64,000 nucleotides of DNA from Kiritimatiellia bacterium (GTDB lineage: Bacteria > Verrucomicrobiota > Kiritimatiellia > RFP12 > UBA1067), in the NCBI GenBank assembly GCA_041673345.1, contig JBAYXX010000004.1:4607-68606 (forward strand), written 5' to 3'. This document shows positions 30,098-56,249 of this stretch, in pieces. The notes beneath the pieces were generated by a model. The model was not told the origin of the DNA, made no database searches, and saw only the letters and a program-made list of their open reading frames with translations. A program made the translations under genes and the position numbers. The first letter of the stretch is position 1. Each line of letters begins with the position of its first letter.

Positions 30098-30107
30098 TGC
30101 TGTGATC

Positions 30108-32713: not shown

Positions 32714-32772
32714 GGGCGAAAAATCTTTCGCCCTGATGAACCCTGATGAAATGATTGCGAAAAATCTTTCGC
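32714..32772 (+). promoter_or_regulatory. Twin intercistronic hairpins (GGGCGAAA aatc TTTCGCCC twice) flanking a CCCTGATGAA direct repeat
   Basis: Hairpin 1 at 32714-32733, hairpin 2 at 32757-32772, CCCTGATGAA x2 at 32731-32750. They lie between the adaptor stop (32713) and the pump ATG (32789). Confidence 0.6.
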
Positions 32773-32788
32773 CCCAACAGTTAAACCA

Positions 32789-35700
32789 ATGACATACTTA
32801 AAAGACAGAGTGCTCACCAAAGGACCTGTGGCATGGATGGCCCGAAATCCGGTTGCCTCCAACCTGGTAATGCTGGTGGCGATCACTGGCGGGCTGCTGA
32901 CTGGCTTTTCAATCAAGAAAGAGGTTTTTCCTGATTTCGCGCTGGATTTTGTGACTGTATCAGTGGCTTATCCTGGGGCTAGTCCAGAGGAGGTGGAGCG
33001 CGGAATCGTGACCGTGATTGAGGAGAATCTACGCGGTCAGGAGGGTGTTAAAGAGGTGACGGCCAGCGCCATTGAGGGACGGGGCTCAGTGGTCGCCGAA
33101 CTGATGGAGGGTGCTGACCGGCAGAAGATCTATCAGGATATTCAGCAGGAGATCTCCCGTATCACCACCTTTCCAGAGGATAGCGAGCGGCCAGTGGTCG
33201 CGCTCTCCCTGCGTCGGCGCGATGTGCTTGACTTTGTGCTTTACGGCGATGTTCCCGAACAGGTGCTGGCCGAGCAGGCGGAGATTATCAAGGATCGGCT
33301 GTTGGAGAATCCTGGGATTACACAGCTCTCCCTAACTGGCATTCGCCCCTATCAAATTACTATCTCGCCCTCGCGCGACACACTGCGGGCCCATGGTCTG
33401 ACGCTTAAAGATATTGCAGCCCGTGTGAATGCCCTTGCCGTTGAACTCCCTGGGGGAGGGATTAAAACCACGGCGGGCGAGATTTTGCTGCGCATGGATG
33501 AGCGGCGTGATTACGGGGACCAGTTCGCGTCCCTTCCGGTAATCACTGGCAGCGATGGCTCGATTGTCTATTTGCGCGATATTGCCGAGATCAAAGATGG
33601 CTTTGATGAGGAGACAGAAAAATTTGTCTCCTGGAATGGGGCTCGCGCCGTTATGGTGAACGTCTACCGTGTTGGTAAGCAAACTCCAATTGGCGTGGTT
33701 AAAGCAGTGCGTGAGGTGCTGGCCGAGGTGCGGGAGGAGCTGCCGCAGGGGCTTGAGATTGAAGTGCGGCGTGATCGTTCCAAGACCTATCAGCAGCGCT
33801 TTGAATTATTGATGAAAAATGGCGCAATCGGCCTTATGCTGGTATTGCTGATACTGGGACTGTTTCTTGAACCACGTTTGGCGTTCTGGGTGATGATGAG
33901 CATCCCAGTCTCGTTTTTGGGTGGCTTACTGCTACTGCCTTTCTTTGGTGTCTCGGTGAATGTGATGTCAATGTTCGCATTTCTGATTGCTCTGGGTATT
34001 GTGGTGGATAACGCGATTGTGGTGGGCGAGAATGTCTTTGAACATCGGCAGAGCGGGGATGATCCGATGTTCGCCTCCATCCGCGGCACCCGCGAGGTGG
34101 CGATGCCGGTCACGTTCAGTGTGCTGACCAATATTGTGACTTTTATTCCGCTTCTGTTTCTGCCGGGGGTGATTGGTAAAATTTGGGCTATGGTGCCTGT
34201 GGTGGTGAATCTGGTGTTCATGATCTCGCTGATGGAGTGCGTGTTTGTTCTGCCAGCGCATCTGGGGCATCTCAAGCTTAATAATCGTTTCGCTTTTGCA
34301 CGCTGGTATAAAAAATTCCAGGAGAACTTTAATCGGGTGTTCTTTGGTACTATCAATCGGGTCTATCAACCAGCGCTGAGGTTCTTGATTTACTGGCGCT
34401 ATCTGGTGATCGCATTGAGCGTGCTACTGCTGGTCGGGACCATTGGCTACGTGAAGAGCGGGCGGATTGGGATTGTGGATATGATGAGCGTGGATGCCGA
34501 TTTCGCGGCGGCAACTGCTGTCCTGCCCTATGGGTCTCCGATTGAAAAGACATTTGTTGTGCGCGACCGTCTGGTCAAGGCTGCCACAAAGGTCGCGGCC
34601 GAGCATGGTGGCACCAATCTGGTGTTTGGCGTTTACGCGTATGTGGGCGGCTCTTTTAACGGTGTCTCTGGTGGGCATGTGGTGATGGTGGAGGCGCATC
34701 TTACCGATCCAGATGTGCGTCCTATCTCAACTCCGGAGTTCACCAGGCTGTGGCAGCAGGAGATGGGCGTGATGGCAGGCATTGAGACCATGCTCTTTGA
34801 GTCCAACCGTGGCGGCCCAGGCAGTGGATCTTCGCTGAGTGTCGGCCTCCTGCATAATGATATTGGGATGCTTGAGGCGGCTGCGTCAGAGCTGTCCCAG
34901 AAGCTGGAGGAGTTTCCGATTGTCTTTGACATTGATGACGGCTTCGCGGATGGAAAACCGCAGTTTAATTTCAAGATGCTGCCAGAGGGCATGGCACTGG
35001 GCTTGACAGCTTCGGATGTCGCCCGTCAGGTGCGCTCCGCTTTCTATGGGGCTGAGGCTTTCCGTCAGCAGCGTGGACGCAATGAGATTAAGGTTCTGCT
35101 CCGGCTGCCAGAGGCTGAACGTCTCTCCGAATATGATCTGGCGCAGCTCATGATCAAAACTCCCTCCGGCATTGATGTGCCACTACGCGATGTGGCTTCA
35201 GCCATGCGCGGCCGGGCCTATACCTCCATCAACCGTCTGGATGGACGCCGCCTGCTGACAGTCAGTGCCAACGTCAATCCACGCAGTGAATCAGAGCGCA
35301 TCCTGGCTATTATCCTTAAAGATACTTTGCCTGAGTTACAGCAGAAATATCCGGGCCTCACGCAGGTCTTCCGTGGCAAGCAGAAGGATATCCGCGAGGG
35401 CATGGGGGCCTTAGTCAGAGGTTTCATCTTTGCTCTGCTGGTTGTCTATGTGCTGCTGGCCATTCCGTTCAAGAGCTACACTCAGCCTTTGATCATCATG
35501 ACCTCCATCCCCTTTGGCATTGTGGGCGCAGTGCTCGCGCACGTGATGTTGGGCTACCCGCTCAGCATGATCAGCATTATGGGTATTGTGGCGCTGGCTG
35601 GTGTGGTGGTCAACGACTCACTGGTGCTGGTTGACTACGCCAACAATGAGGTCAGTCGCGGTGTTGGAATCAAAGACTCGATTATCAACGCTGGCTTGCG

Positions 35701-35926
35701 CCGTTTCCGGCCCGTGTTGCTGACCACCCTGACCACCTTTCTCGGGTTGGCGCCGATGATCTTTGAGACTTCGCGCCAGGCGCGGTTCATGATCCCTATG
35801 GCCATCTCGCTGGGCTTTGGTATTCTCTTCGCCACCCTGATCACCCTTGTGCTGGTGCCTGCGCTATATGTGACCATCGAGGATCTGCATCGCGCCTGGG
35901 ATAAAATTTACGGTAGCCCTCACTAG
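32789..35926 (+). CDS. RND efflux permease (AcrB/AcrD/AcrF superfamily)
   Basis: 1045 aa. ARNPVASNLVMLVAITGGL, LIALGIVVDNAIVVGENV (TM4), and a second-half repeat with VALAGVVVNDSLVLVDY. Confidence 0.95.
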   Translation: MTYLKDRVLTKGPVAWMARNPVASNLVMLVAITGGLLTGFSIKKEVFPDFALDFVTVSVAYPGASPEEVERGIVTVIEENLRGQEGVKEVTASAIEGRGSVVAELMEGADRQKIYQDIQQEISRITTFPEDSERPVVALSLRRRDVLDFVLYGDVPEQVLAEQAEIIKDRLLENPGITQLSLTGIRPYQITISPSRDTLRAHGLTLKDIAARVNALAVELPGGGIKTTAGEILLRMDERRDYGDQFASLPVITGSDGSIVYLRDIAEIKDGFDEETEKFVSWNGARAVMVNVYRVGKQTPIGVVKAVREVLAEVREELPQGLEIEVRRDRSKTYQQRFELLMKNGAIGLMLVLLILGLFLEPRLAFWVMMSIPVSFLGGLLLLPFFGVSVNVMSMFAFLIALGIVVDNAIVVGENVFEHRQSGDDPMFASIRGTREVAMPVTFSVLTNIVTFIPLLFLPGVIGKIWAMVPVVVNLVFMISLMECVFVLPAHLGHLKLNNRFAFARWYKKFQENFNRVFFGTINRVYQPALRFLIYWRYLVIALSVLLLVGTIGYVKSGRIGIVDMMSVDADFAAATAVLPYGSPIEKTFVVRDRLVKAATKVAAEHGGTNLVFGVYAYVGGSFNGVSGGHVVMVEAHLTDPDVRPISTPEFTRLWQQEMGVMAGIETMLFESNRGGPGSGSSLSVGLLHNDIGMLEAAASELSQKLEEFPIVFDIDDGFADGKPQFNFKMLPEGMALGLTASDVARQVRSAFYGAEAFRQQRGRNEIKVLLRLPEAERLSEYDLAQLMIKTPSGIDVPLRDVASAMRGRAYTSINRLDGRRLLTVSANVNPRSESERILAIILKDTLPELQQKYPGLTQVFRGKQKDIREGMGALVRGFIFALLVVYVLLAIPFKSYTQPLIIMTSIPFGIVGAVLAHVMLGYPLSMISIMGIVALAGVVVNDSLVLVDYANNEVSRGVGIKDSIINAGLRRFRPVLLTTLTTFLGLAPMIFETSRQARFMIPMAISLGFGILFATLITLVLVPALYVTIEDLHRAWDKIYGSPH

Positions 35927-36329
35927 TTGCTATTCTCTCAACTCCTGTCGTAAAAAACAAGAAGTTCAGACAGTCGCCGTCATAAGTTGTTGAGTTAAAA
36001 TATAGCGATTAGTCTTCGGTGCTTTCTTAATTAAACCATGCGCTCTTAACAATCGTAGACGAGTTAATAATTTTCTTACCCCAAATTTTCTTACCTTAAA
36101 ATTTTTCCTCGCAGAGCGGCAGAGCTCGCGGAGATTCGCGGGTAAAAAAACCTGAGAACGCTGTGCCTCTGTGAGATATAAAAAACGTGCACAAAAGGCG
36201 GGATGCCTGTGCTACTTTTTTATAACCTTCATTGCAACTTCTCAATAAATCGCTTTTAAGCAGGCTTCTGTCTTCGCGCTTCGCAGCTACGCCGGACACA
36301 GAAAGCCTGTACTACAAACTTCGTTTTCC

Positions 36330-36450
36330 CAAACGCGCGGCGTTTGTTAATAAAGCAGCGGGCTCTTAACCATGCAACCTTCAATGAAAACGAAAAGCTT
36401 CCGCATATGACATAAACTCAGCCGGTTGTGGCGAAAAGCTGCTTTAGCAG
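36330..36450. repeat. ~120-bp interspersed repeat (AAACGC..GCGTTTGTTA...AGCGGGCTCTTAA..CAACCTTCAATGA...AAAAGCTGCTTTAG), copy 1
   Basis: Aligns by eye with 56125-56243 in the same orientation. Confidence 0.8.
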
Positions 36451-36636
36451 TACGTCTCATTTTATGAACCTTTCTTTTATCGCATGAGAGTACTGAGTTC
36501 GGAATTCTTCGCGCAGCTTTGGCTCTCCCAGCGGGTTTTGGGTCGCTGTTGTGCCACGTTGCTGTCTATTAAGTTATAAAATGCGATGGATGACTACAAT
36601 TGTATGCACTTTTTTGAAAAAAGTGATCATTTCAAA

Positions 36637-36665
36637 TTGACCAAAAGCCGCAGTTAAGGTATAAA
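36637..36665 (+). promoter_or_regulatory. Sigma-70-type promoter candidate immediately upstream of the TPR gene (predicts a leaderless or near-leaderless mRNA)
   Basis: TTGACC (36637-36642), a 17-bp spacer, TATAAA (36660-36665). The ATG at 36673 is only 7 nt after the -10 element, and there is no SD sequence. Confidence 0.4.
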
Positions 36666-36672
36666 GCTAACC

Positions 36673-39600
36673 ATGAGTAATATTAGATTTCATAGATTTC
36701 TGTTGTTATCGATCATAACCACCTTTGGTTTTGCTTTCGCTACAAGCCTAGTAGCGCAAGAGTCCAAGGTTGATGCGGAGTTAAAAGAGGAACTCAAATA
36801 TATTGAGTTGCTTCAGCAAATGCGGATGCCGGACATTGCGGAACAGGTGATTGCCGATGTTAAGAAAGCGTATCCTGAGGCTGGACCGCAGCTTAAGGTA
36901 CGTGAATTTCAGGGTCTGCTGTGGCAGGGCAAGTTCGATGAGGTCAAGGTTCAGATTGACGCAATACCGGACAAGAACAGCTCTGAGTTCTGGGCGTTGA
37001 CACTGGCCATGGCGGATGCGTATTACGCTTTTCAGCGCTATGCCGAGGCGGACAAGCTCTATCAGGAGTTCTTTAAAAAAGTGGCTAAGCCCTCCGAAGC
37101 GATGCACTCCTTTTATCGAGACTCGGCCTATAAGTACGCGCAGATGTTGCTTTATTTGGGGAAGGACGCGGAGGCGCTTAAGGCTTACAAACTGCTGTCC
37201 AATGTAAAGCTGGAAGAGGACCGGGAGCGGAATGTCAATGCGGACATGGCTGAGCTGATGCTGAAACTGGCAGTTGATCTTAAAGACAAAGCCGCCAAGG
37301 CTGCGATGCTGAAAGAGGCCGAGGTGCTGGTGGATAAACTGCTCTGGAAGCAGGATGTCTGGTTCGGTAAAGCGATTGTCATGAAGGCCCATGTTGCGAT
37401 GTTGCGGGATGATATCAAAGGGGCGCAGGCGCTGGTGGAAAACTACATGCCGCAGCTGAAGATTATCCATGACTCGCTGCTGGAAGACGATCCGGACGGC
37501 ACACGGGGCTGGCTGCGGATGAGCCCGATGCCTGAGTGTCGGTATCTGTTGGCGGTTTTACTGCTGGATGAGGCCAAGGCGGAGATGAAGAAACCCGCTC
37601 CTGATGAGGAGCTGATCAAGGGTTATTTTTTGGGAGAGCGCGATCCCAAGACCAAGAAACGTGCGAACAACGGGGCTTTCAACCACTTCATCAATGTGTT
37701 TATCCGTTTTCCTGAGAGTCAGTGGGCTGCCGATGCTGGCGAGCACTCGGATGAGATTCGTAGTATTATTAAGGATCGTTACAATGTGGATGTGCGTACA
37801 CCAGTGACACCGCAGCAGATGGAGCGGGTACGGACCATGCAGTTTGCGGGGGCCAATTTGTTGTTCAGCCAGAATAAATTTAAAGAGGCGGCGGAGAAGT
37901 ACCTGATTGTAATAAACCAGTTCCCGGAGTCTATGGAGTCGGTCAACGCACTCGGCAATCTGGCGATCTGTTATATTGAGGGCGGTGCCGATGATGAGCT
38001 GATGGCTGATGCAGTGGTGGGGCATCTCTCTGAACGTTTTGCTGTCAAGAAGGATTTAATGAAGGCCGCTGGTGATCAGGTGCGCAAGATCGGGGATTAT
38101 TATGGCAACAATAATCGTGATGACAAAAAGCGCGAAGTTTACACAATGTTCTTCCGCGATTACCCAACGCATTATGCCGCGAGTCAGTTGGTCATGAGCT
38201 TTGCAGAGCGTGAGTTCAAAGCAGAGAACTATGTTGGCGCCAAAGCCTATTATGACAGGGTGATCACTGAGTACAAGTCTTCCACCTATTATCACGACGC
38301 GTTGAACCGGATCACGCAGATTTACAGGGCTGAAGGGAACTTCTCTAATGAGCTGAGTTCACTGGAGTTTTTGATTGACGAGCTGCAGAAGAGCGAGCGG
38401 CCTGGTCATAATCTGGTGGTCGCGAAGTTTCGCCTAGCCGATGTAGAGCGCTCTTATGGCTCGCTGCTGCTGAAGTCAGGTGCCACCAACGAGACCGATG
38501 AAGCGGTGCTGCAGGAGGGGGCTCGTTTGCTGACAAAAGCCGCGCTCAGCTTTGATGCGGTCGCTAAAATGCTGGCCGACCCAACTCCCTATCAGAAGAA
38601 CGCTGAAGAGACCGAGCGCAACCAGCAGATGCGGGAGATGGCCACTTTCACCAAGGGTGTTGCACTATCACAATTGCAGTACCCCAAGGACAAACGGACG
38701 ATCTACCGCAGGCTGTCGATTGCAGCGTTTGAGGCTTACCTGACCGCTTTTCCCAAGAGTAAGTATTCACCCAAAGCTCAGTTGCAGCTCGGTACGTTGT
38801 ACACAGTTCTTGCCGGCAACGCCACCGAGGAGCGTGATCAGAACGAATACAAGGAAAAAATCCAGAAAGCTTTTGAAGCGCTCAGCAAAAATTACCCTGA
38901 CTCCGAGGAGGCCAAAAACTCTGTTCCGATGCTGGCAGCGAGTTTGATTGAAATGGGGTTGCGCGGTGAGGGCGTGGCTAAATACCGTGAGATGTTCACT
39001 GGGGGCGGCAAATACACGCCAGGGCAGTACAACGCGGCTGGCAATGCCCTGCTGCAGTCACAGGAGTACGCGCTGGCTTTAGAGGCTTACAACAAGGTGC
39101 TGGCGAACTCGAAGGAGTTTGCGCTGATTGCCGAGGCCAAGTTAGGTAAAGCCAAAGCGTTGGTCGGCCAAAAGCAGTACCGTGAGGCGCGCAAGCTGTT
39201 GGCGGCCTATGTGGTCGATCCCGAACTTTCAAAGTTAGTGCAGGTGGTGGATGCCCATATGCTGTTAGCTGACGCGGCCAGTGAGGAGGGCAAGACCGAG
39301 GCAGACAATGAGCTGCGTAAAGACCTCTTCAACCAAGCGGTCGATTCACTTAAACTGGTGCGGGGTTACCGCAAGACCAAAGCCGAGATTGCCGAGATCG
39401 ATTTGGCCACTGGCAATATGCTGGTGCGCAAGATGGAGGCAGAGAAGAAGCTTGGTCTGAATGATCAGGCGGCTGAGACACGCGGCACTGCGATTGTGGC
39501 TTTTATGATAATTATCGACCGGTTTGATCCAGGCGACGCCATTTTGTCACCCTATCTGGAGAAGGCCTACTTTGCCTTCACCCCGCTGCTGTTGGAGCAT

Positions 39601-39714
39601 AAAGCCTATGCCCAGGCCGTGGATGATTGTGAAACATATCTCAGGCTGTTCCCGCAGGGGCGCTACGCGACTGATATGCAAAACTGGCTCAATCAGGCGA
39701 AGATCGGGCAGTAA
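36673..39714 (+). CDS. Large secreted tetratricopeptide-repeat (TPR) protein
   Basis: 1013 aa. Signal peptide MSNIRFHRFLLLSIITTFGFAFATSLVAQ. Recurrent TPR-like A..Y..G.Y..A...Y/F segments throughout (e.g. AMADAYYAFQRYAEADKLYQEFF, AEREFKAENYVGAKAYYDRVITEY). Confidence 0.85.
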   Translation: MSNIRFHRFLLLSIITTFGFAFATSLVAQESKVDAELKEELKYIELLQQMRMPDIAEQVIADVKKAYPEAGPQLKVREFQGLLWQGKFDEVKVQIDAIPDKNSSEFWALTLAMADAYYAFQRYAEADKLYQEFFKKVAKPSEAMHSFYRDSAYKYAQMLLYLGKDAEALKAYKLLSNVKLEEDRERNVNADMAELMLKLAVDLKDKAAKAAMLKEAEVLVDKLLWKQDVWFGKAIVMKAHVAMLRDDIKGAQALVENYMPQLKIIHDSLLEDDPDGTRGWLRMSPMPECRYLLAVLLLDEAKAEMKKPAPDEELIKGYFLGERDPKTKKRANNGAFNHFINVFIRFPESQWAADAGEHSDEIRSIIKDRYNVDVRTPVTPQQMERVRTMQFAGANLLFSQNKFKEAAEKYLIVINQFPESMESVNALGNLAICYIEGGADDELMADAVVGHLSERFAVKKDLMKAAGDQVRKIGDYYGNNNRDDKKREVYTMFFRDYPTHYAASQLVMSFAEREFKAENYVGAKAYYDRVITEYKSSTYYHDALNRITQIYRAEGNFSNELSSLEFLIDELQKSERPGHNLVVAKFRLADVERSYGSLLLKSGATNETDEAVLQEGARLLTKAALSFDAVAKMLADPTPYQKNAEETERNQQMREMATFTKGVALSQLQYPKDKRTIYRRLSIAAFEAYLTAFPKSKYSPKAQLQLGTLYTVLAGNATEERDQNEYKEKIQKAFEALSKNYPDSEEAKNSVPMLAASLIEMGLRGEGVAKYREMFTGGGKYTPGQYNAAGNALLQSQEYALALEAYNKVLANSKEFALIAEAKLGKAKALVGQKQYREARKLLAAYVVDPELSKLVQVVDAHMLLADAASEEGKTEADNELRKDLFNQAVDSLKLVRGYRKTKAEIAEIDLATGNMLVRKMEAEKKLGLNDQAAETRGTAIVAFMIIIDRFDPGDAILSPYLEKAYFAFTPLLLEHKAYAQAVDDCETYLRLFPQGRYATDMQNWLNQAKIGQ

Positions 39715-39753
39715 GTAAGTGAATGGCAAAGAGATTTGAGGAATAAAAAAGGA

Positions 39754-40563
39754 ATGAGTATGAGAAAAAGTATTAGAACAGTTCTTTTGACAGCACTGCT
39801 GCTGGTGGCAGGTGCTGGGATGGCTGCTGTGCAGGGCACAATTGTCACGACTGATGGTAAAAAACTTGACGGCGAGATTGTCTGGAAAATCCGTGAGAAA
39901 GCCTATGGCATTAGTGCGTCAGGCGCGGGTAATATTGAGCTGGCGCTGGAACGGGATAAGGTTGCGCGGCTAGTCATCCCCAAGCCGGCGGAGTTGACTG
40001 CAGTGGAGGCGAATTTGAAAAAAGGCGAGGGTGCCGCTGCCGCTATTCCTGTGTTGAATAAAATCATCAATGATTACTTCATGCTCAACTGGGACAGGCC
40101 TGCAACACGCCTGCTGGCCGAGGCTTATGTCAAAAACAATGATGTCGCTAATGCGATTAAGGTTTGCGAACGGGTGATTGCGACTGATCCGACGGCGGCC
40201 TATCAGGGTGATATGGCGCCAGCCTACTGGGCGGCACTGTTGATGGGTGACCGAATTGCCAAACTGGATGATCTGATTACGCAAGCGGTGAAAAACGCGG
40301 ATCGTTCCGCCTCCGCCTTCGCGTTGATTATGCGTGGCGATATGATCATGAAAGCCGGCGACACCAATGAGAGTGCCAGTAAAGCTTTGCGTGATGGTTA
40401 TCTGCGCGTGGTTACGCTTTACAGCGGAATCAAAGCCGCGCAACCGGAAGCGTTATATAAGGCGGCCAAGTGCTTTGAAAAACTGGGCCATTCATCTCGC
40501 GCTGATCAGATGCGCACAAAGTTGAAAGGGGAGTACGGCTCTTCTGAGTGGGCTCTTAAATAA
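39754..40563 (+). CDS. Secreted TPR protein (CpoB/YbgF-like size and position)
   Basis: Signal peptide MSMRKSIRTVLLTALLLVAGAGMAAVQG. TPR-like helices (LLAEAYVKNNDVANAIKVCERVIATDP; ALYKAAKCFEKLGHSSRADQM). Directly upstream of exbB/tolQ. Confidence 0.75.
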   Translation: MSMRKSIRTVLLTALLLVAGAGMAAVQGTIVTTDGKKLDGEIVWKIREKAYGISASGAGNIELALERDKVARLVIPKPAELTAVEANLKKGEGAAAAIPVLNKIINDYFMLNWDRPATRLLAEAYVKNNDVANAIKVCERVIATDPTAAYQGDMAPAYWAALLMGDRIAKLDDLITQAVKNADRSASAFALIMRGDMIMKAGDTNESASKALRDGYLRVVTLYSGIKAAQPEALYKAAKCFEKLGHSSRADQMRTKLKGEYGSSEWALK

Positions 40564-40659
40564 ACAGCAGGCGTGCCCCGGGCGGGGTATGCACAACAGT
40601 TTTGTTAGTCAATAAGCTAACTTTTAAAAACACGAGTAATAAAAACACAAGAGGTAATA

Positions 40660-41448
40660 ATGAAAAGACTGATTTTGTCAGCAGTAGTGTTCACAGGGTT
40701 AATACTTGGGAGCGCGCCGGTCATGGCGCAAGATGCGGATGCAGCGGCCGCGCCAGCCGCAGAGGGCGTATTGGTCGCTGAGGGAGGCGCCGCAGGGGTC
40801 AGACAGGCACCTCAAGCCGGTTTCTGGGCTGTGATTGTGGGCTCAGGTTGGCTGGGGATGGTTTTGTGGGCCGCGCTACTTGGCTGCGGCGGCACGGCAG
40901 TGTACTTTATCGTCGACTGCTCAGTCTTGATCCGACCGCAGAAAGTCATGCCTGAGACGCTGATCAACCGCGTGAAAGAGGGGATGTCCGAGGGCGATGT
41001 GATGAAAGCATTGCAAGCCTGTGAGTCAGAACCGGGACCGCTGGCCAATATTCTGACCGCTGGTTTTTCGCATGTGGAAGAGGGCTTCGATATTATCCAG
41101 GAGTCGATCATCGCCGCCGCTGATTTGGAGACCGAGCGCTTGATGCAGCGTCTGACCTGGATCTCAGTCTGCGCCAACCTCTCGCCCATGTTGGGTCTGC
41201 TGGGTACAGTGCAAGGCATGATCATGAGTTTCGCCACTCTGGCCACTGGCGCCCCTGATGTCGGTGCCTTGGCGATGAACATCTCGCAGGCACTCTGGAC
41301 AACTGCGGCCGGTTTGGCGATTGCGATTCCCTCGATCACCTTTTATTACAGCATCCGTAACAATGCCAACCGTCTGATCCTGCGTATGCAGGCTATGACC
41401 ATGGAGCTGATTAAAGACCTGCGTAACGTCGAGGTTGTCAGCGATTAA
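40660..41448 (+). CDS. exbB: MotA/TolQ/ExbB proton-channel family protein
   Basis: 262 aa with an N-terminal signal-like segment, three TM helices and the family motif PMLGLLGTVQGMIMSF. An ExbB versus TolQ assignment cannot be made from sequence alone. Confidence 0.9.
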   Translation: MKRLILSAVVFTGLILGSAPVMAQDADAAAAPAAEGVLVAEGGAAGVRQAPQAGFWAVIVGSGWLGMVLWAALLGCGGTAVYFIVDCSVLIRPQKVMPETLINRVKEGMSEGDVMKALQACESEPGPLANILTAGFSHVEEGFDIIQESIIAAADLETERLMQRLTWISVCANLSPMLGLLGTVQGMIMSFATLATGAPDVGALAMNISQALWTTAAGLAIAIPSITFYYSIRNNANRLILRMQAMTMELIKDLRNVEVVSD

Positions 41449-41607
41449 ATCTCATCCGTGGCGGCTGCAACCCTTGGCTGGGTTACAGTTGGCCACTTGA
41501 TAACCGGATTGTTATATTTTAAAGCGCGGCAGTTGGGCTGGCACTTGTGGCGGCCTGACTGCGAAGTGTGAATTTCACTGCCATTTGGTAGACAAAGGAA
41601 CCGAACC

Positions 41608-42045
41608 ATGCACAAAAGAAGACAGAGCTCAACTGAGACGTGCGATATAGATATGACGCCTATGATTGACGTTGTGTTCCAGTTGATTATTTTCTTTGTA
41701 GTCACTCTTAAAATGACATCTGACAAGAATGAGGATATCGTTCTGGAGGATGGCAAGCATGGCGTGACGTTGACCCAGGATAATATGCCGCCAACCACGC
41801 TCGAAATTGAGCTGGGACGGAGAGGACGCATCTCGATTCATAACGCGACACTGTCGAGATATCAACTGCAACAGATCTTACGAGCCCGCGTAAACCGCAA
41901 CGGAAATGAGTTTCCCGTGTTAATTCGCGCTGACCGCAAAACCCAGCACGAAAAGGTGCGCGAGATTATGGACATCTGCACGGGTGTGGGAATCTGGAAG
42001 CTGTCGTTCGTGGCTGTTCAAGAGCATAAAGCGAAAAGAAAATGA
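41608..42045 (+). CDS. exbD: ExbD/TolR-family biopolymer transport protein (1 of 2)
   Basis: DIDMTPMIDVVFQLIIFFVVT is the canonical ExbD/TolR N-terminal TM motif. 145 aa. Confidence 0.9.
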   Translation: MHKRRQSSTETCDIDMTPMIDVVFQLIIFFVVTLKMTSDKNEDIVLEDGKHGVTLTQDNMPPTTLEIELGRRGRISIHNATLSRYQLQQILRARVNRNGNEFPVLIRADRKTQHEKVREIMDICTGVGIWKLSFVAVQEHKAKRK

Positions 42046-42064
42046 TAAATGCTAGGAGGCTGAC

Positions 42065-42469
42065 ATGGCTTATGTGAGAAAACGGAATAAAGGAGAGACT
42101 CCCAAGCTGGACATGACACCGATGATTGATGTTGTGTTTCAATTGTTGATTTTCTTTATTGTCACAATTAAACAGGAGGACATCCTCTCAAAACTATCCG
42201 CGGCGCGTCCGGCTGCGGATAAAAATGCGCGACCTGACAAGAAGCCCGACTTGATCACAATCGTGGTCGCGCCTCAGGGATTTGTTTTTAATGGGCGGAT
42301 TGTCTCTCTGGATGAGCTTGATCGCAGGGTCAAACGTTACTCTGACCTGAGTAAGACGGCGATGATTGTTATTAAATGCACCGCCGACTCACCGCATGCT
42401 TTTCTTGTGCAGTCGCTGGACATCTGCAACAAGCATGGCATGACCAACCTGTCGATCTTCAGCATCTGA
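42065..42469 (+). CDS. exbD: ExbD/TolR-family biopolymer transport protein (2 of 2)
   Basis: LDMTPMIDVVFQLLIFFIVT. 134 aa. Confidence 0.9.
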   Translation: MAYVRKRNKGETPKLDMTPMIDVVFQLLIFFIVTIKQEDILSKLSAARPAADKNARPDKKPDLITIVVAPQGFVFNGRIVSLDELDRRVKRYSDLSKTAMIVIKCTADSPHAFLVQSLDICNKHGMTNLSIFSI

Positions 42470-42489
42470 CAAGAGAAGGGCGGAACACT

Positions 42490-44073
42490 ATGGTTTTCAA
42501 TGAGGTAGATACGAATCTCGCGGAGATTGCCGAGATGTATGGTAATGAATCTTACCTCAAGCGGATGAGAAAGCTTTTCACTGGCTTGAAAGCGCCGCGC
42601 GATTCCAGAGCTTACAAAGTGGCGATGATTGAAATACAACGCCTCTCCGCCCCAATCTCGGCTATTCTGATGCCGCTGCTCTCAGTTATGCTGCTGATTG
42701 TGTTGTCAAATGCTTCGGTCACCGATGACCGGATTATTGAGACGCAGATCATGGAAGCTGAGGAAATGCAGGAGCTGACGGAGATTGAAGTCATGGAAAA
42801 ACCCCCTGAAGATATGCAGCAGATCGATATCGACATGCCCGTCGATACCCCGGATGTGAGCGTCGAGAATGTGCAGGACACCCCTATGAGTCCTCAGCCA
42901 CAGGCGTTTGACACGGTCATGACTGTGAAAAGCCCGGTGATTCTCAAAAACATCTACGGTTCGACGCGTAACACCGGCACCCGCGGCGCCTCACTGGCCC
43001 GTTTCGGCGGCGACAAGGATACTGAGGATGCGGTGATGCGGGCACTGCGCTGGCTCAAGAAAAACCAGAATCAAGATGGAAGCTGGAGTAGACACAAGGT
43101 TGCTATGACCGGCCTTGGGGTGCTGACCTTCCTGGCGCACGGTGAGAAACCCGGAGATTCACCGGAGTTTGGTGAAACTGTACGCAAGGCACTGGAGTAT
43201 CTTTTGAAGGTGCAGCGTGCTGACGGCTTGCTGCCAGGCGGAGGTAGCAACTATGATCACCCCATTGCCACCTACGCGCTGTGCGAGGCATACGGCATGA
43301 CCCTGAACCCGAATGTCAAGGAGTCCGCTGAAAAGGCGCTGGATCAGATCATCAAAGGACAGCACCCAACTGGCGGCTGGACCTATAAACTGTTTCCCGG
43401 CATCGAGGAAAAGACCGGAAAATACCGTGATGACACCTCTTATATGGGATGGTGCGCTCAGGCGCTTAAGGCTGGCAAGCTGGCGAAGCTCAATGTTGAA
43501 GGGCTGGATAAGTCAATCCAGACTGCAGTCAAGGGATTCAAGGCCAATGCGGCTCCGAACGGCGGCTTCGGCTACTGTGCGCCTGGCAGCGGTGGCTTGA
43601 CAGCTGTGGGCGTGCTGTGTATGCAGCTGCTGGGGGCCGGTAACGACACCTCGGTGCGTAAATCACAGGAACTAATGGATGGGTGGAGTATCGGAGAGTT
43701 TGACAAAGACAACAAAGTTGGCAAAAGCTCGCAGTATTATTTTTACTATGCGACCCAGGCTAAGTTTCATGCAGGTGGTAAGCGCTGGACCAATTGGAAT
43801 AACGAGATGAAACCGATTTATATCAAAGCCCAGAAGGTTATGAAAAATGCGATCAAGGATATGAACGGCAAAGATTGTGACATTGGGTGGTGGGAGAATA
43901 TTGACGCGCACACTGATCGCCCTGTGATGGACACCTGTCTGGCAGCACTTCAACTGATGGTTTACTACCGGAACCTGCCCACCACCAGCCGCGAAGCGGT
44001 TCAAGTTGAAGTGGAGATCGAGGCCTCCTCAACTGACACCGGAGATATCGAGGTCGATGTCGGGAATCTGTAA
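42490..44073 (+). CDS. Inner-membrane-anchored protein with TonB/TolA-like topology and a periplasmic QW-motif (squalene-cyclase/prenyltransferase-like) domain, paralog 1
   Basis: I chose the ATG at 42490 (MVFNEVDTNLAEIAEMYGNESY...), which matches the start of paralog 2. The track start at 42376 lies inside exbD. It has a TM helix LSAPISAILMPLLSVMLLIVL, an acidic/Pro linker EAEEMQELTEIEVMEKPPEDMQQIDIDMPVDTPDVSVENVQDTPMSPQPQ, and QW motifs RALRWLKKNQNQDGSW and KALDQIIKGQHPTGGW. Confidence 0.75.
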   Translation: MVFNEVDTNLAEIAEMYGNESYLKRMRKLFTGLKAPRDSRAYKVAMIEIQRLSAPISAILMPLLSVMLLIVLSNASVTDDRIIETQIMEAEEMQELTEIEVMEKPPEDMQQIDIDMPVDTPDVSVENVQDTPMSPQPQAFDTVMTVKSPVILKNIYGSTRNTGTRGASLARFGGDKDTEDAVMRALRWLKKNQNQDGSWSRHKVAMTGLGVLTFLAHGEKPGDSPEFGETVRKALEYLLKVQRADGLLPGGGSNYDHPIATYALCEAYGMTLNPNVKESAEKALDQIIKGQHPTGGWTYKLFPGIEEKTGKYRDDTSYMGWCAQALKAGKLAKLNVEGLDKSIQTAVKGFKANAAPNGGFGYCAPGSGGLTAVGVLCMQLLGAGNDTSVRKSQELMDGWSIGEFDKDNKVGKSSQYYFYYATQAKFHAGGKRWTNWNNEMKPIYIKAQKVMKNAIKDMNGKDCDIGWWENIDAHTDRPVMDTCLAALQLMVYYRNLPTTSREAVQVEVEIEASSTDTGDIEVDVGNL

Positions 44074-44077
44074 TTAT

Positions 44078-45304
44078 ATGCTCTTTTCTCTTTTTTTGGC
44101 GCTTAAATATTTGAAACCCAAACGCACCGTCACATCAGTGGTTTCTCTGATCTCGGTGCTTGGTGTTGTGCTGGGTGTGGCGATTATCATTATTGTGCGC
44201 GCTGTGATGACCGGCTTTGGTGACATGTGGCAGGAGAAGATTCTGGATTTCAAGCCCCATATCATCATTCGTTCGTTTGCGGGCGGGGTCATTCAGGACG
44301 AGGAGGCCCTCTGCCGCAGATTGGAGCTGGTGGAGGGGGTCAAGGCCGCCTCCCCGTCACTGGAAACCAGAGTGCTGGTGGAAAATCATCGGCGGGTGGT
44401 GGCCCCGGTGCTGATCGGTGTGGATCCGGTGCGTGCAAAGAGTATTATGAAACTGGAGCACATGCAAGCAGGTGAGTTTGATGTGACCGGTGATGCAGTG
44501 GTGCTGGGCACTGACCTGGCGCAGGAACTCGGGGTGGGGGTCGGTGACGATCTGCTAATCTACTCGCCCATGAATCTGGTTTCCACGGATGAGGTCTACT
44601 TTCCAGACCGCTTGAACGTCAAAGGGATCTTTGAGTCAGGGCAGCGCGACTTTGATTCCGGGTACATAATCACCTCACTGGCAGTGGCGCGTGATCTGAT
44701 GGGTATGAGTTCAGGGGTTTATTCCATTCATCTCAAGACTGAGCAACCCGCCAATTTTGAGTTCTTCAATAAGATTGTGGGACGGGTGGAAGATATCACA
44801 CCCAATTTTCGGGTTCAGACCTGGCAGGAGATTGACCGGCAGATCTTTAATGCGCTGGCGGTTGAAAAAAACATGATGGTGATTCTGCTGATGTTTATCA
44901 CGGTGGTTGCGATTTTCTGTGTCACCAACACCTTGATTGTGTTGACAGTGCAGAAAACCGATGAGATCGGCCTGCTCAAAGCACTGGGTTTTTCCTCGCG
45001 TCAGGTGATGGGCGCTTTTGTGATTTACGGCTGGATCCAGTGCCTGATCGGAACTCTGCTGGGAATTGTCGCCGCTTTTTTGATATTGTACAATTTGCAG
45101 TCCATGGTGGATGGCCTGGCCCTGCTGGGAGTGGAGGTTTTTCCCAAGGCGATCTACGGGCTGAATGCGATCCCCTGGCGGATTATTCCCTCCGAGGTGG
45201 TGAATGTGGCGCTGTCGGTGATCCTGTTCTGCACGGTCGCCAGTTTTCTGCCCGCCTGGAGAGCCGCACGGATGGATCCGGTGGTTGCGCTGCGTAAAGA
45301 GTAG
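44078..45304 (+). CDS. LolC/LolE-family ABC transporter permease (MacB-type periplasmic domain + FtsX)
   Basis: MLFSLFLALKYLKPKRTVTSVVSLISVLGVVLGVA is a typical LolC/E N-terminus. C-terminal FtsX helices, ending ...PAWRAARMDPVVALRKE. The ATG at 44078 is 4 nt after the upstream stop. Confidence 0.85.
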   Translation: MLFSLFLALKYLKPKRTVTSVVSLISVLGVVLGVAIIIIVRAVMTGFGDMWQEKILDFKPHIIIRSFAGGVIQDEEALCRRLELVEGVKAASPSLETRVLVENHRRVVAPVLIGVDPVRAKSIMKLEHMQAGEFDVTGDAVVLGTDLAQELGVGVGDDLLIYSPMNLVSTDEVYFPDRLNVKGIFESGQRDFDSGYIITSLAVARDLMGMSSGVYSIHLKTEQPANFEFFNKIVGRVEDITPNFRVQTWQEIDRQIFNALAVEKNMMVILLMFITVVAIFCVTNTLIVLTVQKTDEIGLLKALGFSSRQVMGAFVIYGWIQCLIGTLLGIVAAFLILYNLQSMVDGLALLGVEVFPKAIYGLNAIPWRIIPSEVVNVALSVILFCTVASFLPAWRAARMDPVVALRKE

Positions 45305-45362
45305 AGTTGCGGATGACGGCAGGCGGGTGATCGCAGGCCGTTGCCGTAGAAAGAAACGATCA

Positions 45363-46037
45363 ATGCTGGAAGCGAAAAATTTATTTAAAACCTATACTCT
45401 GCCCCATAAGCAGGTGAGTGTGCTGCAGGGCGCCGGGATAGCCGTGCGGGAAGGGGAGCGCGTCGCGGTTGTCGGACGCAGCGGCGCGGGTAAAAGCACT
45501 CTGCTGCATGTGCTGGGCGGCTTGGATCGCCCTGATTCCGGCGATGTGATGATTGATGGGGTCTCGCTGTATGGGATTTCACGGCGTAAAAGAACGGCGG
45601 TGCGAGCCGCTCGGATTGGTTTTGTTTTTCAGTCATACCATCTTCTGCCGGAGATGGATGTGACCGAGAATGTGATGCTGCCAGCCATGACTGGGGTTCT
45701 CAGAATCAAGCGCCACGAGATGCGTACGCGCGCGTTGGTGCTGCTGGCGCGGGTGGGACTGAGTGATCGGGCCAGCCATATGCCCATGGAACTCTCAGGC
45801 GGAGAGCAGCAGCGTGTCGCACTGGCGCGGGCGCTGATTAATAACCCGGCGCTGGTACTGGCCGATGAGCCGACCGGCAACCTGGATAGTAAAACCGGCT
45901 CGCAGGTGATGGATTTGCTTTTTGAGCTCTCCAGCGCCAACAAGTCTGCATTGATCATGGTCACCCACTCAATGCGGAGCGCGGCGCTGTGCGACCGAAT
46001 ACTTGAGATTCAAGACGGTTTGCTGGTGGGGGCGTGA
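45363..46037 (+). CDS. lolD: ABC transporter ATP-binding protein, LolD-like
   Basis: [11 protein letters not shown], Walker [10 protein letters not shown], signature [15 protein letters not shown], Walker [14 protein letters not shown] chose the ATG at 45363; the track's upstream extension is Arg-rich and non-homologous. Confidence 0.85.
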
Positions 46038-46085
46038 AGGCCTTAAAAATGATACAGTAAAAAGAACAAGGGGTTATCCCCTCGG

Positions 46086-46139
46086 CTGGATATTTGCAAC
46101 AAGCATGACATGACCAACCTGTCGATCTTCAGCATCTGA
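46086..46139 (+). pseudogene. Relic of the last 17 codons plus stop of exbD, carried along by a segmental duplication
   Basis: ctggatatttgcaacaagcatgacatgaccaacctgtcgatcttcagcatctga, against 42416-42469 ctggacatctgcaacaagcatggcatgaccaacctgtcgatcttcagcatctga (LDICNKHGMTNLSIFSI*). No upstream exbD body is present here. Confidence 0.85.
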
Positions 46140-46159
46140 CAAAAGAAGGGAGGAACACT

Positions 46160-47893
46160 ATGAGATTCAATGAGGTAGATACCAATCTCGCGGAGATTGC
46201 CGAGATGTATGGCAATGAGTCCTATATCAAGCGGATGAAAAAGCTTTTCACAGGCTTGAATGCGCCGCGTGATTCCAGAGCTTATAAAGTGGCGATGATT
46301 GAGATACAGCGCCTTTCCGCCCCGATTTCGGCTATTCTGATGCCGCTGCTCTCAGTTATGCTGCTGATTGTGTTGTCAAATGCTTCGGTCACCGATGACC
46401 GGATTATTGAGACGCAGATCATCGAAGCTGAGGAGATGCAGGAGCTGACGGAGATTGAAGTCATGGAAAAACCACCTGAAGACATGGCGCAGATTGATAT
46501 CGACATGCCTGTCGATACCCCGGATGTGAGCGTCGAGAATGTGCAGGACACCCCCATGAGCCCTCAGCCACAGGCGTTTGATACGGTCATGACCGTGAAA
46601 AGCCCTGTGATTCTCAAAAACATCTATGGCTCGACGCGCAACACCGGCACCCGTGGAGCCTCGCTGGCCCGCTTCGGCGGCGACAAGGAGACCGAGGATG
46701 CGGTAATGCGGGCGCTGCGCTGGCTCAAAAAAAATCAGAATGACGATGGGAGCTGGAATAAAAATAAGGTCGCCATGACCGGTCTGGGGGTGCTGACCTT
46801 CCTAGCTCACGGTGAGAAACCAGGGGACTCGCCGGAGTTTGGTGAAACCATACGCAAGGCGCTGGAGTTTCTGCTGAATTCACAGCAAGCTAATGGCTTG
46901 CTGCCCGGCAACTACGATCACCCCATAGCCACCTACGCACTGTGCGAGGCCTATGGTATGACCATGAATCCGAATGTCAAAGAGGCCTCTGAAAAGGCAC
47001 TGTACCATATCATCAAAGGACAGCACCCAACTGGCGGCTGGACCTACAACCTGTTTCCAGGTCCCAGTGCCGAGACCGGAAAATACAGGGATGACACATC
47101 CTATATGGGGTGGTGTGCGCAGGCCTTGAAAGCCGGCCAACTGGCGAAGCTCAATGTGGATGGGCTTGAAAAGGCGATGAAGCTGGCTATTAAGGGTTTT
47201 CAGGCCAATGCGGCTCCCAACGGTGGTTTCGGATACTGCGGACCTGGACGTGGAGGACTCACGGCAGTTGGGACATTATGTATGCAGCTTTTAGGTGCTG
47301 CTAACAAATCGGAGGTCAAGGAATCACTCAAGTTGATGAATGAATGGGTGCCGACGTTCTCACAATATGAACCGGTCCAAGCATGTATAAAACAATTGAA
47401 GCCAGAAGATCTAATCAAGCGTGACACATCAGGAAAACCGGTTCTGGATGAAAAAGGAAAACCAGAAAAACTGGCTCCCATGGCTGTGGCAAAAAGTAAG
47501 CTTATTTCAACAGCTGATCCGGCTGAAAAAATGTTTTATACGGCATCGGCGCAATACTATTTTTATTACGCGACGCAGTGCAAGTTCCATGAGGGTGGCA
47601 GGCAGTGGAATAACTGGAACAAAGAGATGAAACCAAGGTATACCAAGGCGCAGAAAGTACAGAAAAACGGGATTAAAGACCATAAAGGAAAAGACCAGGA
47701 TATTGGCTGGTGGGAGAATGCTGACCATGCCTCTGATCGTCCGGTGATGGACACTTGCCTGGCAGCGCTGCAGCTGATGGTGTACTATCGGAATCTACCC
47801 ACTACCAGCCGCGAAGCAGTTCAGGTTGAAGTCGAGATCCAGGCCACCTCAACCGACACCGGAGATATCGAGGTCGATGTCGGGAATCTGTAG
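46160..47893 (+). CDS. Inner-membrane-anchored QW-motif protein, paralog 2 (with a ~70-aa replacement insertion)
   Basis: 577 aa, MRFNEVDTNLAEIAEMYGNESY.... Same TM helix, linker and QW motifs as paralog 1. The first ~185 aa differ at about 7 positions and the last ~52 aa at 2 positions. The middle is more diverged. Confidence 0.8.
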   Translation: MRFNEVDTNLAEIAEMYGNESYIKRMKKLFTGLNAPRDSRAYKVAMIEIQRLSAPISAILMPLLSVMLLIVLSNASVTDDRIIETQIIEAEEMQELTEIEVMEKPPEDMAQIDIDMPVDTPDVSVENVQDTPMSPQPQAFDTVMTVKSPVILKNIYGSTRNTGTRGASLARFGGDKETEDAVMRALRWLKKNQNDDGSWNKNKVAMTGLGVLTFLAHGEKPGDSPEFGETIRKALEFLLNSQQANGLLPGNYDHPIATYALCEAYGMTMNPNVKEASEKALYHIIKGQHPTGGWTYNLFPGPSAETGKYRDDTSYMGWCAQALKAGQLAKLNVDGLEKAMKLAIKGFQANAAPNGGFGYCGPGRGGLTAVGTLCMQLLGAANKSEVKESLKLMNEWVPTFSQYEPVQACIKQLKPEDLIKRDTSGKPVLDEKGKPEKLAPMAVAKSKLISTADPAEKMFYTASAQYYFYYATQCKFHEGGRQWNNWNKEMKPRYTKAQKVQKNGIKDHKGKDQDIGWWENADHASDRPVMDTCLAALQLMVYYRNLPTTSREAVQVEVEIQATSTDTGDIEVDVGNL

Positions 47894-53428: not shown

Positions 53429-53554
53429 AGGAACCAACGAAAGAATGGTCTTGAAAAATGCGGTCTCCCCAAAAGACTTAGCGTCGGACAAGATTTGCTA
53501 ATTCGCGGTTATTCATTGAGAATAACTGCAAAACATATGTTAGGAGGGTTTATA

Positions 53555-54997: not shown

Positions 54998-55034
54998 GAC
55001 AAAAAGTTCTGTTTTAACTTACATAACTGACATA

Positions 55035-55072
55035 CAAGGGTCTGCGGTTCACCGCAGGCCCTTGTTGTTTTT
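55035..55072 (+). terminator. Rho-independent terminator candidate
   Basis: CAAGGGTCTGCGG ttca CCGCAGGCCCTTG followed by TTGTTTTT. It is 38 nt after the stop at 54997. Confidence 0.75.
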
Positions 55073-55419
55073 AATAAACACCTCCATCTTTAAACCCCTT
55101 CAATCTTTTGACTTTTTAACCCTTGCTATGCGCGCACGGAGCGCGGAGAGAGGCTGCGCCTTCGGCTTACGATAGCGGCGGCGATGACGACCGACGATTT
55201 TCAAGGCCGTGATTTTTAATCGTAACCCGCTATCGCATGTCACGCCGAACGATTGAAAGGCGGGTCTCGTCCAAAGCCGCTCTGTGAGCGACACTAAACA
55301 TGCAAGGCCGCTCATAGAGCGGCTACTACACCGAACGACAACTCTTGCATTCCGTAGTGCAGCGCATGTGTAGTAGTCGCTCTGTGAGCGACACACCGAA
55401 CGACAACTTTTGCATTGTT

Positions 55420-55950: not shown

Positions 55951-56124
55951 CACGGAAATGTTCTCCAACCTCCGGCTTATCTCTTGCAAGGTACGCCACA
56001 GTCCAGGCTACGGGTCGTTTTTTTGACCTGATGACCTGGTGACTCGGTGGCATTGCTTACTGACCCGAACTCCGATTGGAAATCGGACCTACGCTGCTCC
56101 CGCGCCAAAGGCGCGACCTCCTCC

Positions 56125-56243: not shown

Positions 56244-56249
56244 GCGCTC

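Follow-up and report, generated by a model that had tools for sequence, protein, structure and literature searches.

A toroid protein in the tonB position of an ExbB-ExbD-ExbD cassette of Kiritimatiellia: a candidate motor-coupled envelope transducer

Introduction

To our knowledge, the Ton and Tol systems are the only well-understood routes by which the energy of the inner membrane is brought to the outer envelope of diderm bacteria. Here, we analyse a block of nine open reading frames (ORFs), all on the + strand, at positions 36673-47893 of a 64,000-nt stretch of DNA from a Kiritimatiellia bacterium (contig JBAYXX010000004.1; the whole stretch is called the window hereafter). The block opens with two genes for tetratricopeptide repeat (TPR) proteins, followed by an ExbB/TolQ-like gene, two different ExbD/TolR-like genes and a gene for a 527-amino acid (aa) membrane-anchored protein with QW motifs, named QW1 here; genes for a LolCE-like permease, a LolD-like ATPase and a paralogue of QW1 (QW2) come after it. 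On balance, we lean towards the reading that the ExbB/ExbD motor of this block energises the toroid-domain effector QW1 instead of TonB, on the grounds of synteny, topology and a sequence motif.

The closest described systems come from the Planctomycetes-Verrucomicrobia-Chlamydiae (PVC) bacteria, in which TPR-tolQ-tolR-tolR genes are followed by a gene for an inner membrane-tethered protein composed of a transmembrane helix (TMH), a linker that is disordered and carries a motor box, and a C-terminal domain of the von Willebrand factor A (vWA) type (Williams-Jones et al. 2025, Mol Biol Evol, PMC12204202, section 8). The search for these vWA transducers began from species without discernible TolA and TonB, e.g., Tichowtungia aerotolerans of the Kiritimatiellota, and it was proposed that the same motors drive non-TonB heads in PVC bacteria (PMC12204202). 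An initial annotation of the block had presented it as a candidate uncharacterised system; in view of this publication, the idea is less new than it had seemed. The QW block resembles the vWA systems in its TPR genes, its one TolQ/ExbB-like and two heterologous TolR/ExbD-like subunits, and the subsequent inner membrane-tethered TMH-linker-globular protein that has a motor box and lacks TonB_C; both kinds of system occur in the same superphylum. It differs in having a toroid instead of a vWA head (QW1 has no vWA match in Pfam, and its model is an all-alpha toroid), two TPR genes instead of one, and a TMH without the SHLS motif or its histidine, and in the conservation of both a cytoplasmic head of 50 aa and an acidic strand at the C-terminus. 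No description of a toroid-type transducer was found in full-text literature searches, and the text of Williams-Jones et al. (PMC12204202) names neither toroid nor prenyl, squalene or terpene proteins. We regard QW1 as a probable motor-coupled transducer, a variant of the non-TonB force transducers, for which the type of head would be new and the concept was published in 2025.

The second point of comparison is TonB itself. In Fibrobacter succinogenes, genes FSU_2397-2403 have the order TPR-TPR-ExbB-ExbD-ExbD-TonB (PMC6851124), which underlines that QW1 lies in the exact tonB slot. The likeness to TonB-ExbB-ExbD operons includes gene order and subunits up to the last gene, the hallmarks of the motor, an N-in bitopic anchor protein with a D-box-like strand past the TMH, and the presence of several anchor paralogues per genome. 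Unlike TonB, QW1 has neither TonB_C nor the SHLS histidine, and its linker is acidic, not a Pro-Glu/Pro-Lys rod; no TonB-dependent receptor was detected among the window ORFs scanned, and one relative has, besides the cassette, a genuine TonB together with an ExbB-ExbD pair of its own. The Kiritimatiellota are polysaccharide degraders, and in Kiritimatiella glycovorans, the first of them to be cultured, genes for TonB-dependent polysaccharide uptake were reported to be undetectable (PMC5148204).

The Tol-Pal system has a homologous motor, with TolQ as the best solved match of our ExbB-like protein, and its operon includes YbgF/CpoB-like TPR proteins, to which the TPR proteins of the block give weak matches; the QW cassette is also single-copy and has a housekeeping-type neighbourhood. 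Unlike Tol-Pal, the cassette lacks TolA domain III, TolB and Pal, encodes two ExbD-like subunits instead of one TolR, and has its TPR genes upstream, not downstream.

Conservation of the gene order

We collected loci by pattern-based retrieval, 80 from contigs of one genome per species and 80 from JGI metagenomes, called ORFs in all loci, and scored them with hidden Markov models (HMMs) built from the window proteins. Both retrievals reached relatives at identities of at least 49%, and members with 40-44% identity are represented by the additional loci L169-L171. Of the QW genes that have upstream sequence, 48/77 in genomes and 38/54 in metagenomes (86/131 together) are immediately preceded by an exbD gene, with a median gap of about 15-18 nt. 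Where the upstream sequence of a locus extends over 6.5 kb or more, the full upstream set TPR-TPR-ExbB-ExbD-ExbD was present in 30 of the 52 genomic and 15 of the 22 metagenomic loci. The six genes appear in identical order at 40-44% identity in L169-L171, which belong to one Kiritimatiellia metagenome-assembled genome (MAG) and two Lentisphaerae MAGs, and the same six-gene order was also found on a 3.8-Mb contig. The conserved core is TPR(~1013 aa)-TPR(~270)-ExbB/TolQ-like-ExbD-ExbD-QW, and in Kiritimatiellia and Lentisphaerae it holds at identities as low as ~40%; the adjacency of exbD and QW genes is not due to chance, and the initial annotation, which had noticed it in a single genome, is borne out in this respect. 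All named members of the QW family come from Kiritimatiellia, Lentisphaerae or unclassified "Verrucomicrobia" MAGs. At E<=1e-3, the family includes 10,386 clusters (50% identity), more distant toroid relatives among them, and 972 clusters at E<=1e-30.

In the window, ORF calls and Pfam and NCBIfam matches reproduce the nine + strand genes, their order and their spacings as first described: QW1 starts 20 nt past exbD2, and lolCE 4 nt past QW1. The linkage to the Lol genes, which had been considered tight, turned out to be looser across loci. The lolCE-lolD pair lies downstream of the cassette in 25/43 genomic and 20/29 metagenomic loci (~60-70%), and it is absent downstream in L169-L171, where mutL is found in two loci and unrelated genes in the third. 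Since lolCE-lolD is present in only a part of the loci and missing in L169-L171, the conserved unit is the six-gene cassette, and lolCE-lolD and QW2 are accessory neighbours of some lineages; the inference of a lipoprotein-related role or of a Tol-Pal surrogate, therefore, rests on a lineage-limited adjacency. The NCBIfam matches of LolCE (TIGR02212, 278.7 bits) and LolD (TIGR02211, 250.2 bits) are below the respective equivalog cut-offs of 362.45 and 307.75, which may plausibly fit a divergent phylum.

The ExbB/ExbD motor

The best solved relative of the ExbB-like protein is E. coli TolQ (E 2.9e-8), followed by ExbB (1.5e-6), and its alignment to E. coli TolQ retains the channel threonine motifs GTVxG and TxAxGL. 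Both ExbD proteins are nearer ExbD than TolR, and both keep the aspartate of the TMH (TPMIDVVFQL, compared to TPFIDVMLVL with D25 in E. coli ExbD). The alignment of ExbD1 with E. coli ExbD covers both ends, and it places the C-terminal edge strand KLSFVAV of ExbD1 on KIGLVGE, with L132 of E. coli ExbD corresponding to F134 of ExbD1; in E. coli, this hydrophobic edge strand of ExbD captures the D-box of TonB (PMC10907165). Because the channel motifs of ExbB, the TMH aspartate in both ExbD proteins and the edge strand of ExbD1 are kept, the motor looks intact and functional. As judged from these features, the block is predicted to encode a dedicated proton-driven stator of the 5:2 type, assembled from one ExbB/TolQ-like and two different ExbD/TolR-like subunits.

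Topology of QW1 and the motor box

The AlphaFold2 model of QW1, built with 26 homologues, starts with two short cytoplasmic helices and a long helix (residues 40-74) that holds the hydrophobic stretch SAPISAILMPLLSVMLLIV; residues 76-173 are disordered and are followed by a confidently predicted all-helical domain at 176-493 (pLDDT about 90; blocks about 85-96) and a low-confidence tail. The single TMH, the cytoplasmic head of ~50 aa and the TonB/TolA-like topology proposed initially are confirmed by the model and by conservation maps, in which the head is conserved; no known signalling domain was detected in the head with Pfam and NCBIfam. The spacer is, as had been stated, disordered, acidic and Pro-containing, however it is longer than the ~70 aa given: the linker has about 90-100 aa, ~100 in the model. 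QW1 and QW2 have no TonB_C match in Pfam and NCBIfam, searches in which a TonB from a relative (locus L013) scores 74 bits as a positive control, and the claim that an alpha/alpha toroid takes the place of a TonB_C or TolA_C domain agrees with the model, with Foldseek and with both profile collections.

The D-box is a strand with the pattern hydrophobic-polar-hydrophobic-polar-hydrophobic-hydrophobic-polar just past the TMH of TonB (Loll et al., PMC10907165); Williams-Jones et al. 2025 named it the motor box and found it in nearly all TolA and TonB (PMC12204202). In QW1, the segment RIIETQIME, 7-10 residues past the TMH, fits this pattern and is near-invariant among orthologues, and the candidate ExbD-binding peptide is DDRIIETQIMEAEE. 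Equivalent segments are carried by distant QW members (TITIRVAEP, ILDATFLTP, FEVTVVDP, ANVTMMEE), and at the matching position, the TonB of L013 has the motor box ELEVTAVEL. A strict match to the D-box pattern within 30 aa past the TMH is present in 136 of 193 members of the QW family, compared to ~20 when this segment is shuffled and ~8 in other windows of the linker; these 193 sequences are related, thus the number of matches is a measure of conservation rather than of independent events.

The toroid domain

A Foldseek search of the PDB with the QW1 domain returned (alpha/alpha)6 toroids with E of ~1e-5 to 1e-4 and target-normalised TM-scores of ~0.6, among them 8paj/8pak (single-domain class II terpene cyclases), 1sqc, GH76 mannanases, AprG, complement C3d and the farnesyltransferase beta subunit; MmpH, glucose 2-epimerase and CPF_2247 are further structural neighbours. 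The Pfam family SQHop_cyclase_C (gathering score 26.1) is matched by QW1 at 34.0 and by QW2 at 28.4, a profile search of PDB sequences identifies the QW repeats of squalene-hopene cyclase (SHC; 2sqc, E 1.6e-7), and there is a weak match to Pec_lyase in Pfam. The conservation map of the QW protein shows many invariant aromatic residues.

The alpha/alpha fold and the QW-type repeats are thus shared with class II terpene cyclases, SHC and prenyltransferase beta subunits. Unlike SHC, which has two domains (beta-gamma), QW1 has a single toroid, which is periplasmic and membrane-tethered. We take D374-D377 of SHC (the DxDD motif) to fall between the aligned blocks 239-261 and 466-569; the QW1 segment between these blocks, TGLGVLTFLAHGEKPGDSPEFGE, contains no DxDD. 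Terpene-cyclase activity was rejected on this ground and because the match to TIGR01787 is 38 bits, compared to a cut-off of 322.7; similarly, C3d-like thioester chemistry was rejected, the cysteine motif of QW being GWCAQ and not CGEQ. Consequently, the QW motifs that had been read as diagnostic hold as a sign of the fold and not of terpene-cyclase chemistry. Databases list members of the family as "terpene cyclase/mutase family protein" or "prenyltransferase", a systematic misannotation.

The last ~10 residues of the family alternate between acidic and hydrophobic (e.g., DIEVDVGNL, DIKVDTGNL, DVIRVEVVI, DIQIEIF). This C-terminal strand has low confidence in AlphaFold2, yet it is kept even in distant QW members and in a kinase fusion (see below), and it may be a strand-addition peptide or a docking peptide of the TPR/PDZ type.

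QW paralogues and solo exbD genes

QW1 and QW2 are near-identical in the N-terminal 180 aa and the C-terminal 40 aa, and the toroid core of QW2 has diverged and gained a 50-aa insertion relative to QW1. At the nucleotide level, identity is 83-99% in codons 1-300, 52-78% in the middle, and 87-100% in the last 40 codons, with mostly identical synonymous codons at the ends. This mosaic suggests gene conversion of, or constraint on, the ends, which would contact shared partners. In addition, the ~75 nt before the QW2 start match, at ~95% identity, the end of exbD2 (its last ~55 nt) and the 20-nt spacer between exbD2 and QW1. The corresponding position behind lolD is taken by an intact exbD2'-QW' pair in L066 (11466-13468) and in L109 (12326-14327); as the sequence indicates, segment 46086-46159 is a fossil of such a pair.

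Extra QW paralogues are recurrently accompanied by a solo exbD2-type gene of their own. The order exbD2'-QW' is found in L066, L109 and L072, the solo exbD follows the QW gene in L021, L118, L125 and L086, and L164 has the order QW-exbD2'-QW'; in L125, the solo ExbD beside QW scores best with the model of ExbD1, not ExbD2. A comparison of the C-terminal strands of ExbD2' with the motor boxes of QW' revealed no co-variation, the strands being nearly invariant and the boxes different. Locus L072 (605-9949) also contains a second paralogous cassette, TPR(560 aa)-TPR(802)-ExbB-ExbD-ExbD, whose last gene encodes a mini TolA/TonB-like protein of 149 aa; this protein has a TMH with STVIH and a linker rich in Ala, and it lacks a globular C-terminal domain. 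Beyond the cassette lie genes for DUF4159 (multi-TM) and NAGPA-domain proteins, then a gene of the solo ExbD2 type and a QW gene. This suggests that these lineages diversify what is attached to such motors.

Other relatives were found apart from the motor. A stand-alone QW paralogue, ~53-59% identical to QW1 and with no ExbB/ExbD nearby, is followed by an extracytoplasmic function (ECF) sigma factor, within 10-75 nt, and then by a zf-HC2 anti-sigma factor in 17 of the 29 stand-alone loci (e.g., L028, 9872-12997). The metagenomic protein P0180 (927 aa) consists of an N-terminal Ser/Thr kinase, a TM segment, an extracytoplasmic region, a QW toroid, and the tail DDVRLDIGNL, which keeps the family strand D-[IV]-x-[IV]-D-x-G-N-L. 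Finally, P0129, 45% identical to QW1, lies behind the genes of an ABC ATPase and of an FtsX-type permease with 957 aa (L084/L085, 2504-9581), in tandem with a 553-aa protein that we take to be QW-like on account of its size and position only, with no Pfam or QW-HMM match. The location of P0129 beside a MacB/Lol-type ABC transporter could be a second independent adjacency, so that the proximity of the Lol genes to QW1 in the window may be more than a coincidence.

Is QW1 the partner of the motor?

If the ExbB/ExbD motor energises QW1, the coupled partner of the ExbB/ExbD1/ExbD2 stator would be QW1 and not TonB or TolA. The periplasmic ExbD dimer could capture the motor box of QW1 by strand addition, and proton flow through ExbB/ExbD would then pull or rotate QW1 via this box, so that the toroid or the tail would engage a periplasmic or outer-membrane ligand differently; the two secreted YbgF/BamD-like TPR proteins could act as scaffolds.

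Several observations weigh against such coupling. The TMH of QW lacks the histidine of the SHLS motif, the motor-docking residue of TonB, TolA and the vWA transducers; a histidine at any position of the TMH is present in only 7/193 family members, and the family conserves QRLSAP...P instead. If QW docks on the motor, the mode of docking would differ from that of TonB, TolA and the published vWA transducers. Moreover, the statistic for the motor box is inflated by common ancestry, about one-third of the QW genes have no ExbD neighbour, with distant relatives in unrelated contexts, and no outer-membrane partner is encoded among the cassette genes. The kinase-TM-toroid fusion implies that the toroid, along with its tail, is a general module for ligand or partner binding or for sensing, and is not specific to motors.

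One alternative is that QW1 is co-transcribed with the motor genes and not driven by them, being an anchored periplasmic binding protein or enzyme with a toroid for glycans or isoprenoid lipids, whereas the partner of the motor would be a TonB or a mini-TolA encoded elsewhere. Besides the missing histidine and the many paralogues with no motor gene nearby, this would agree with the carbohydrate-active toroids (GH76, MmpH, glucose 2-epimerase, CPF_2247) and terpene cyclases among the structural neighbours, with the weak Pec_lyase match, with invariant aromatics typical of sugar or lipid pockets, and with the polysaccharide-degrading lifestyle of the Kiritimatiellota. Yet, in L013, a related Kiritimatiellia MAG, a canonical ExbB-ExbD-TonB operon (13802-15807, - strand) lies ~1.3 kb downstream of lolD, as it does in L014 and L105; the L013 TonB has the TonB_C domain and a TMH with an SHLS-type motif (SAALH), and the ExbB of this operon is ~31% identical to the ExbB of the cassette. 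This TonB has its own ExbB-ExbD, therefore relatives carry a normal Ton system, and the cassette motor is not simply that of TonB. The description "TonB-less", which had been given to the locus, is valid for the module and within the window, but it does not extend to the lineage. Furthermore, the order exbD-QW with its ~15-nt gap persists over deep divergence, and extra QW copies are accompanied by solo exbD2-type genes; a conserved motor box-like strand and a conserved cytoplasmic head are difficult to explain for a simple anchored enzyme, and DxDD is missing where the SHC alignment brackets it. We consider an undriven QW1 fairly unlikely.

According to another alternative, the motor, toroid and TPR proteins are a Tol-Pal-like surrogate that works with LolCE-LolD in outer-membrane stability or in lipoprotein/lipid traffic. 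The best NCBIfam matches of the TPR proteins are YbgF/CpoB and BamD, and JGI gives one orthologue the name TolA-binding protein; TolQ is slightly nearer than ExbB to the ExbB-like subunit; the Lol genes follow QW1 closely in the window and come after the cassette in more than half of the loci; the 45%-identical paralogue and its tandem neighbour lie directly behind a transporter of the ABC and FtsX (957 aa) type; and a member of the Kiritimatiellota has no discernible TolA and TonB (Williams-Jones 2025, PMC12204202). Conversely, no TolB, Pal or OmpA-like gene is present among the window ORFs scanned or among the cassette genes of any locus examined, the three deeper-branching loci have mutL or other genes in place of lolCE/lolD, ExbD1 and ExbD2 are closer to ExbD than to TolR, and LolCE and LolD, with scores under the equivalog cut-offs, are most simply explained as housekeeping Lol genes. 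The extension of the motor-toroid reading to a Lol or Tol-Pal surrogate is weakly supported, and we find this alternative distinctly improbable.

By analogy with TonB-dependent cell-surface signalling, the toroid could sense a ligand in the envelope or outside the cell, and the signal could be passed on by the motor-coupled anchor, as the ECF sigma/anti-sigma pairs, the kinase fusion with the same C-terminal tail and the conserved 50-aa head would suggest; however, the sigma/anti-sigma pair lies beside a different paralogue, not the QW of the cassette, and may only regulate that paralogue, and with no regulator in the cassette and no known signalling domain detected in the head, this option is very unlikely.

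Going beyond motor-driven QW1 in this block, QW toroids might be a third structural class of periplasmic transducers driven by the proton motive force, after TonB/TolA and vWA, with histidine-independent docking through the TMH and head in addition to the motor box; the resulting multi-paralogue system, with its solo ExbD proteins, ECF sigma factors and MacB/Lol ABC links, would power an essential envelope process in Kiritimatiellia and Lentisphaerae. We offer this broader proposal only tentatively, with more doubt than confidence. If it is true, the process could be, e.g., glycan capture or import, or outer-membrane/lipid homeostasis, in groups of which some lineages are reported to be without recognisable TolA or TonB, and a toroid head would widen the concept of motors that drive non-TonB heads. 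Two classes of polysaccharide degraders with relevance to the environment and the gut share the cassette, which provides testable hypotheses on envelope upkeep or polymer uptake in these organisms.

Locus map and neighbourhood

The features of the block are listed in Table 1, along with the loci in which a stand-alone QW paralogue is followed by ECF sigma and zf-HC2 anti-sigma factor genes.

Table 1. Coordinates of the features in the window (strand and supporting evidence given where available) and loci with stand-alone QW paralogues
Feature	Position	Strand	Evidence or remark
TPR1013	36673-39714	+	First cassette gene; 1013-aa TPR solenoid, secreted (signal peptide, without lipobox Cys); TPR Pfam matches
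TPR275	ORF 39736-40563, annotated start 39760 (267 aa)	+	Secreted; small five-stranded beta domain, then TPR repeats
ExbB/TolQ-like stator subunit	40660-41448	+	N-terminal signal peptide and periplasmic extension; MotA_ExbB 92.6 bits
ExbD1, ExbD/TolR-like stator subunit	41608-42045	+	ExbD Pfam 81.6 bits
ExbD2, second heterologous ExbD/TolR-like subunit	42065-42469	+	ExbD Pfam 74.1 bits
QW1, 527-aa bitopic inner-membrane protein	42490-44073	+	AlphaFold2, Foldseek, Pfam/PDB profiles, conservation maps
QW1 TMH, aa ~52-74	42643-42711	+	
QW1 motor box/D-box-like motif RIIETQIME, aa 81-89	42730-42756	+	Pattern of TonB D-box
QW1 (alpha/alpha)6 toroid, aa 176-493	43015-43968	+	AlphaFold2 and Foldseek
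QW1 C-terminal tail, aa 494-527, acidic, beta-prone, conserved	43969-44070	+	Conservation maps
LolCE-like (MacB/FtsX-type) ABC permease	44078-45304	+	FtsX and MacB_PCD
LolD-like ABC ATPase	45363-46037	+	ABC_tran 117 bits; TIGR02211 250.2 bits
Remnant: exbD2-type 3' end and 20-nt spacer	46086-46159	+	~95% identical to 42416-42489
QW2, 577-aa QW1 paralogue	46160-47893	+	ORF and family matches
Stand-alone QW with ECF/zf-HC2	L027, L028, L030, L038, L039, L041, L043-L046, L048, L050, L052, L053, L056, L057, L078		

The match of TPR1013 to the YbgF model TIGR02795 (cut-off 90.1) is weak, 78.6 bits over three stretches, and its BamD-like match is also below the cut-off; the YbgF match of TPR275 is weaker still (27.5 bits, same cut-off). 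P0389 is 100% identical to TPR275. The AlphaFold2 model of TPR275 (pLDDT 87.9) places the strands in residues 24-72 and the TPR helices in residues 77-266, and Foldseek returned generic TPR folds alone (BamD, NlpI, PilF), with none at E<=0.001.

No TonB_C, TolA, TolB, Pal/OmpA or TonB-dependent-receptor domain was detected in the 30 other window ORFs that were scanned, as the initial annotation had it for the window. A scan of the block for promoters and terminators was at chance level, with no convincing + strand terminator inside, and a scan of the window with Rfam gave no match; one tRNA-Gly gene lies far upstream of the block.

The neighbourhood in the window consists of two TetR-regulated efflux operons of the resistance-nodulation-division (RND) type and housekeeping genes. 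The efflux operons lie directly upstream of the cassette, at 17658-24387 (TetR, membrane fusion protein (MFP), RND, outer membrane factor (OMF)) and at 29432-35926 (TetR-OMF-MFP-RND), and a 746-nt non-coding gap (35927-36672) precedes TPR1013. Positions 3067-9572 cover the gene for a DUF1559/N-methyl (pseudopilin-like) protein and, after it, a 1861-aa ORF without a Pfam match; ORFs of 500 aa (53495-54997) and 266 aa (26684-27484) have no Pfam match, either. GC skew is positive from position 1 to ~56 kb and negative beyond, and the genes shift from mainly the + strand to mainly the - strand at about 54000-58000, which may mark a replication-related strand switch.

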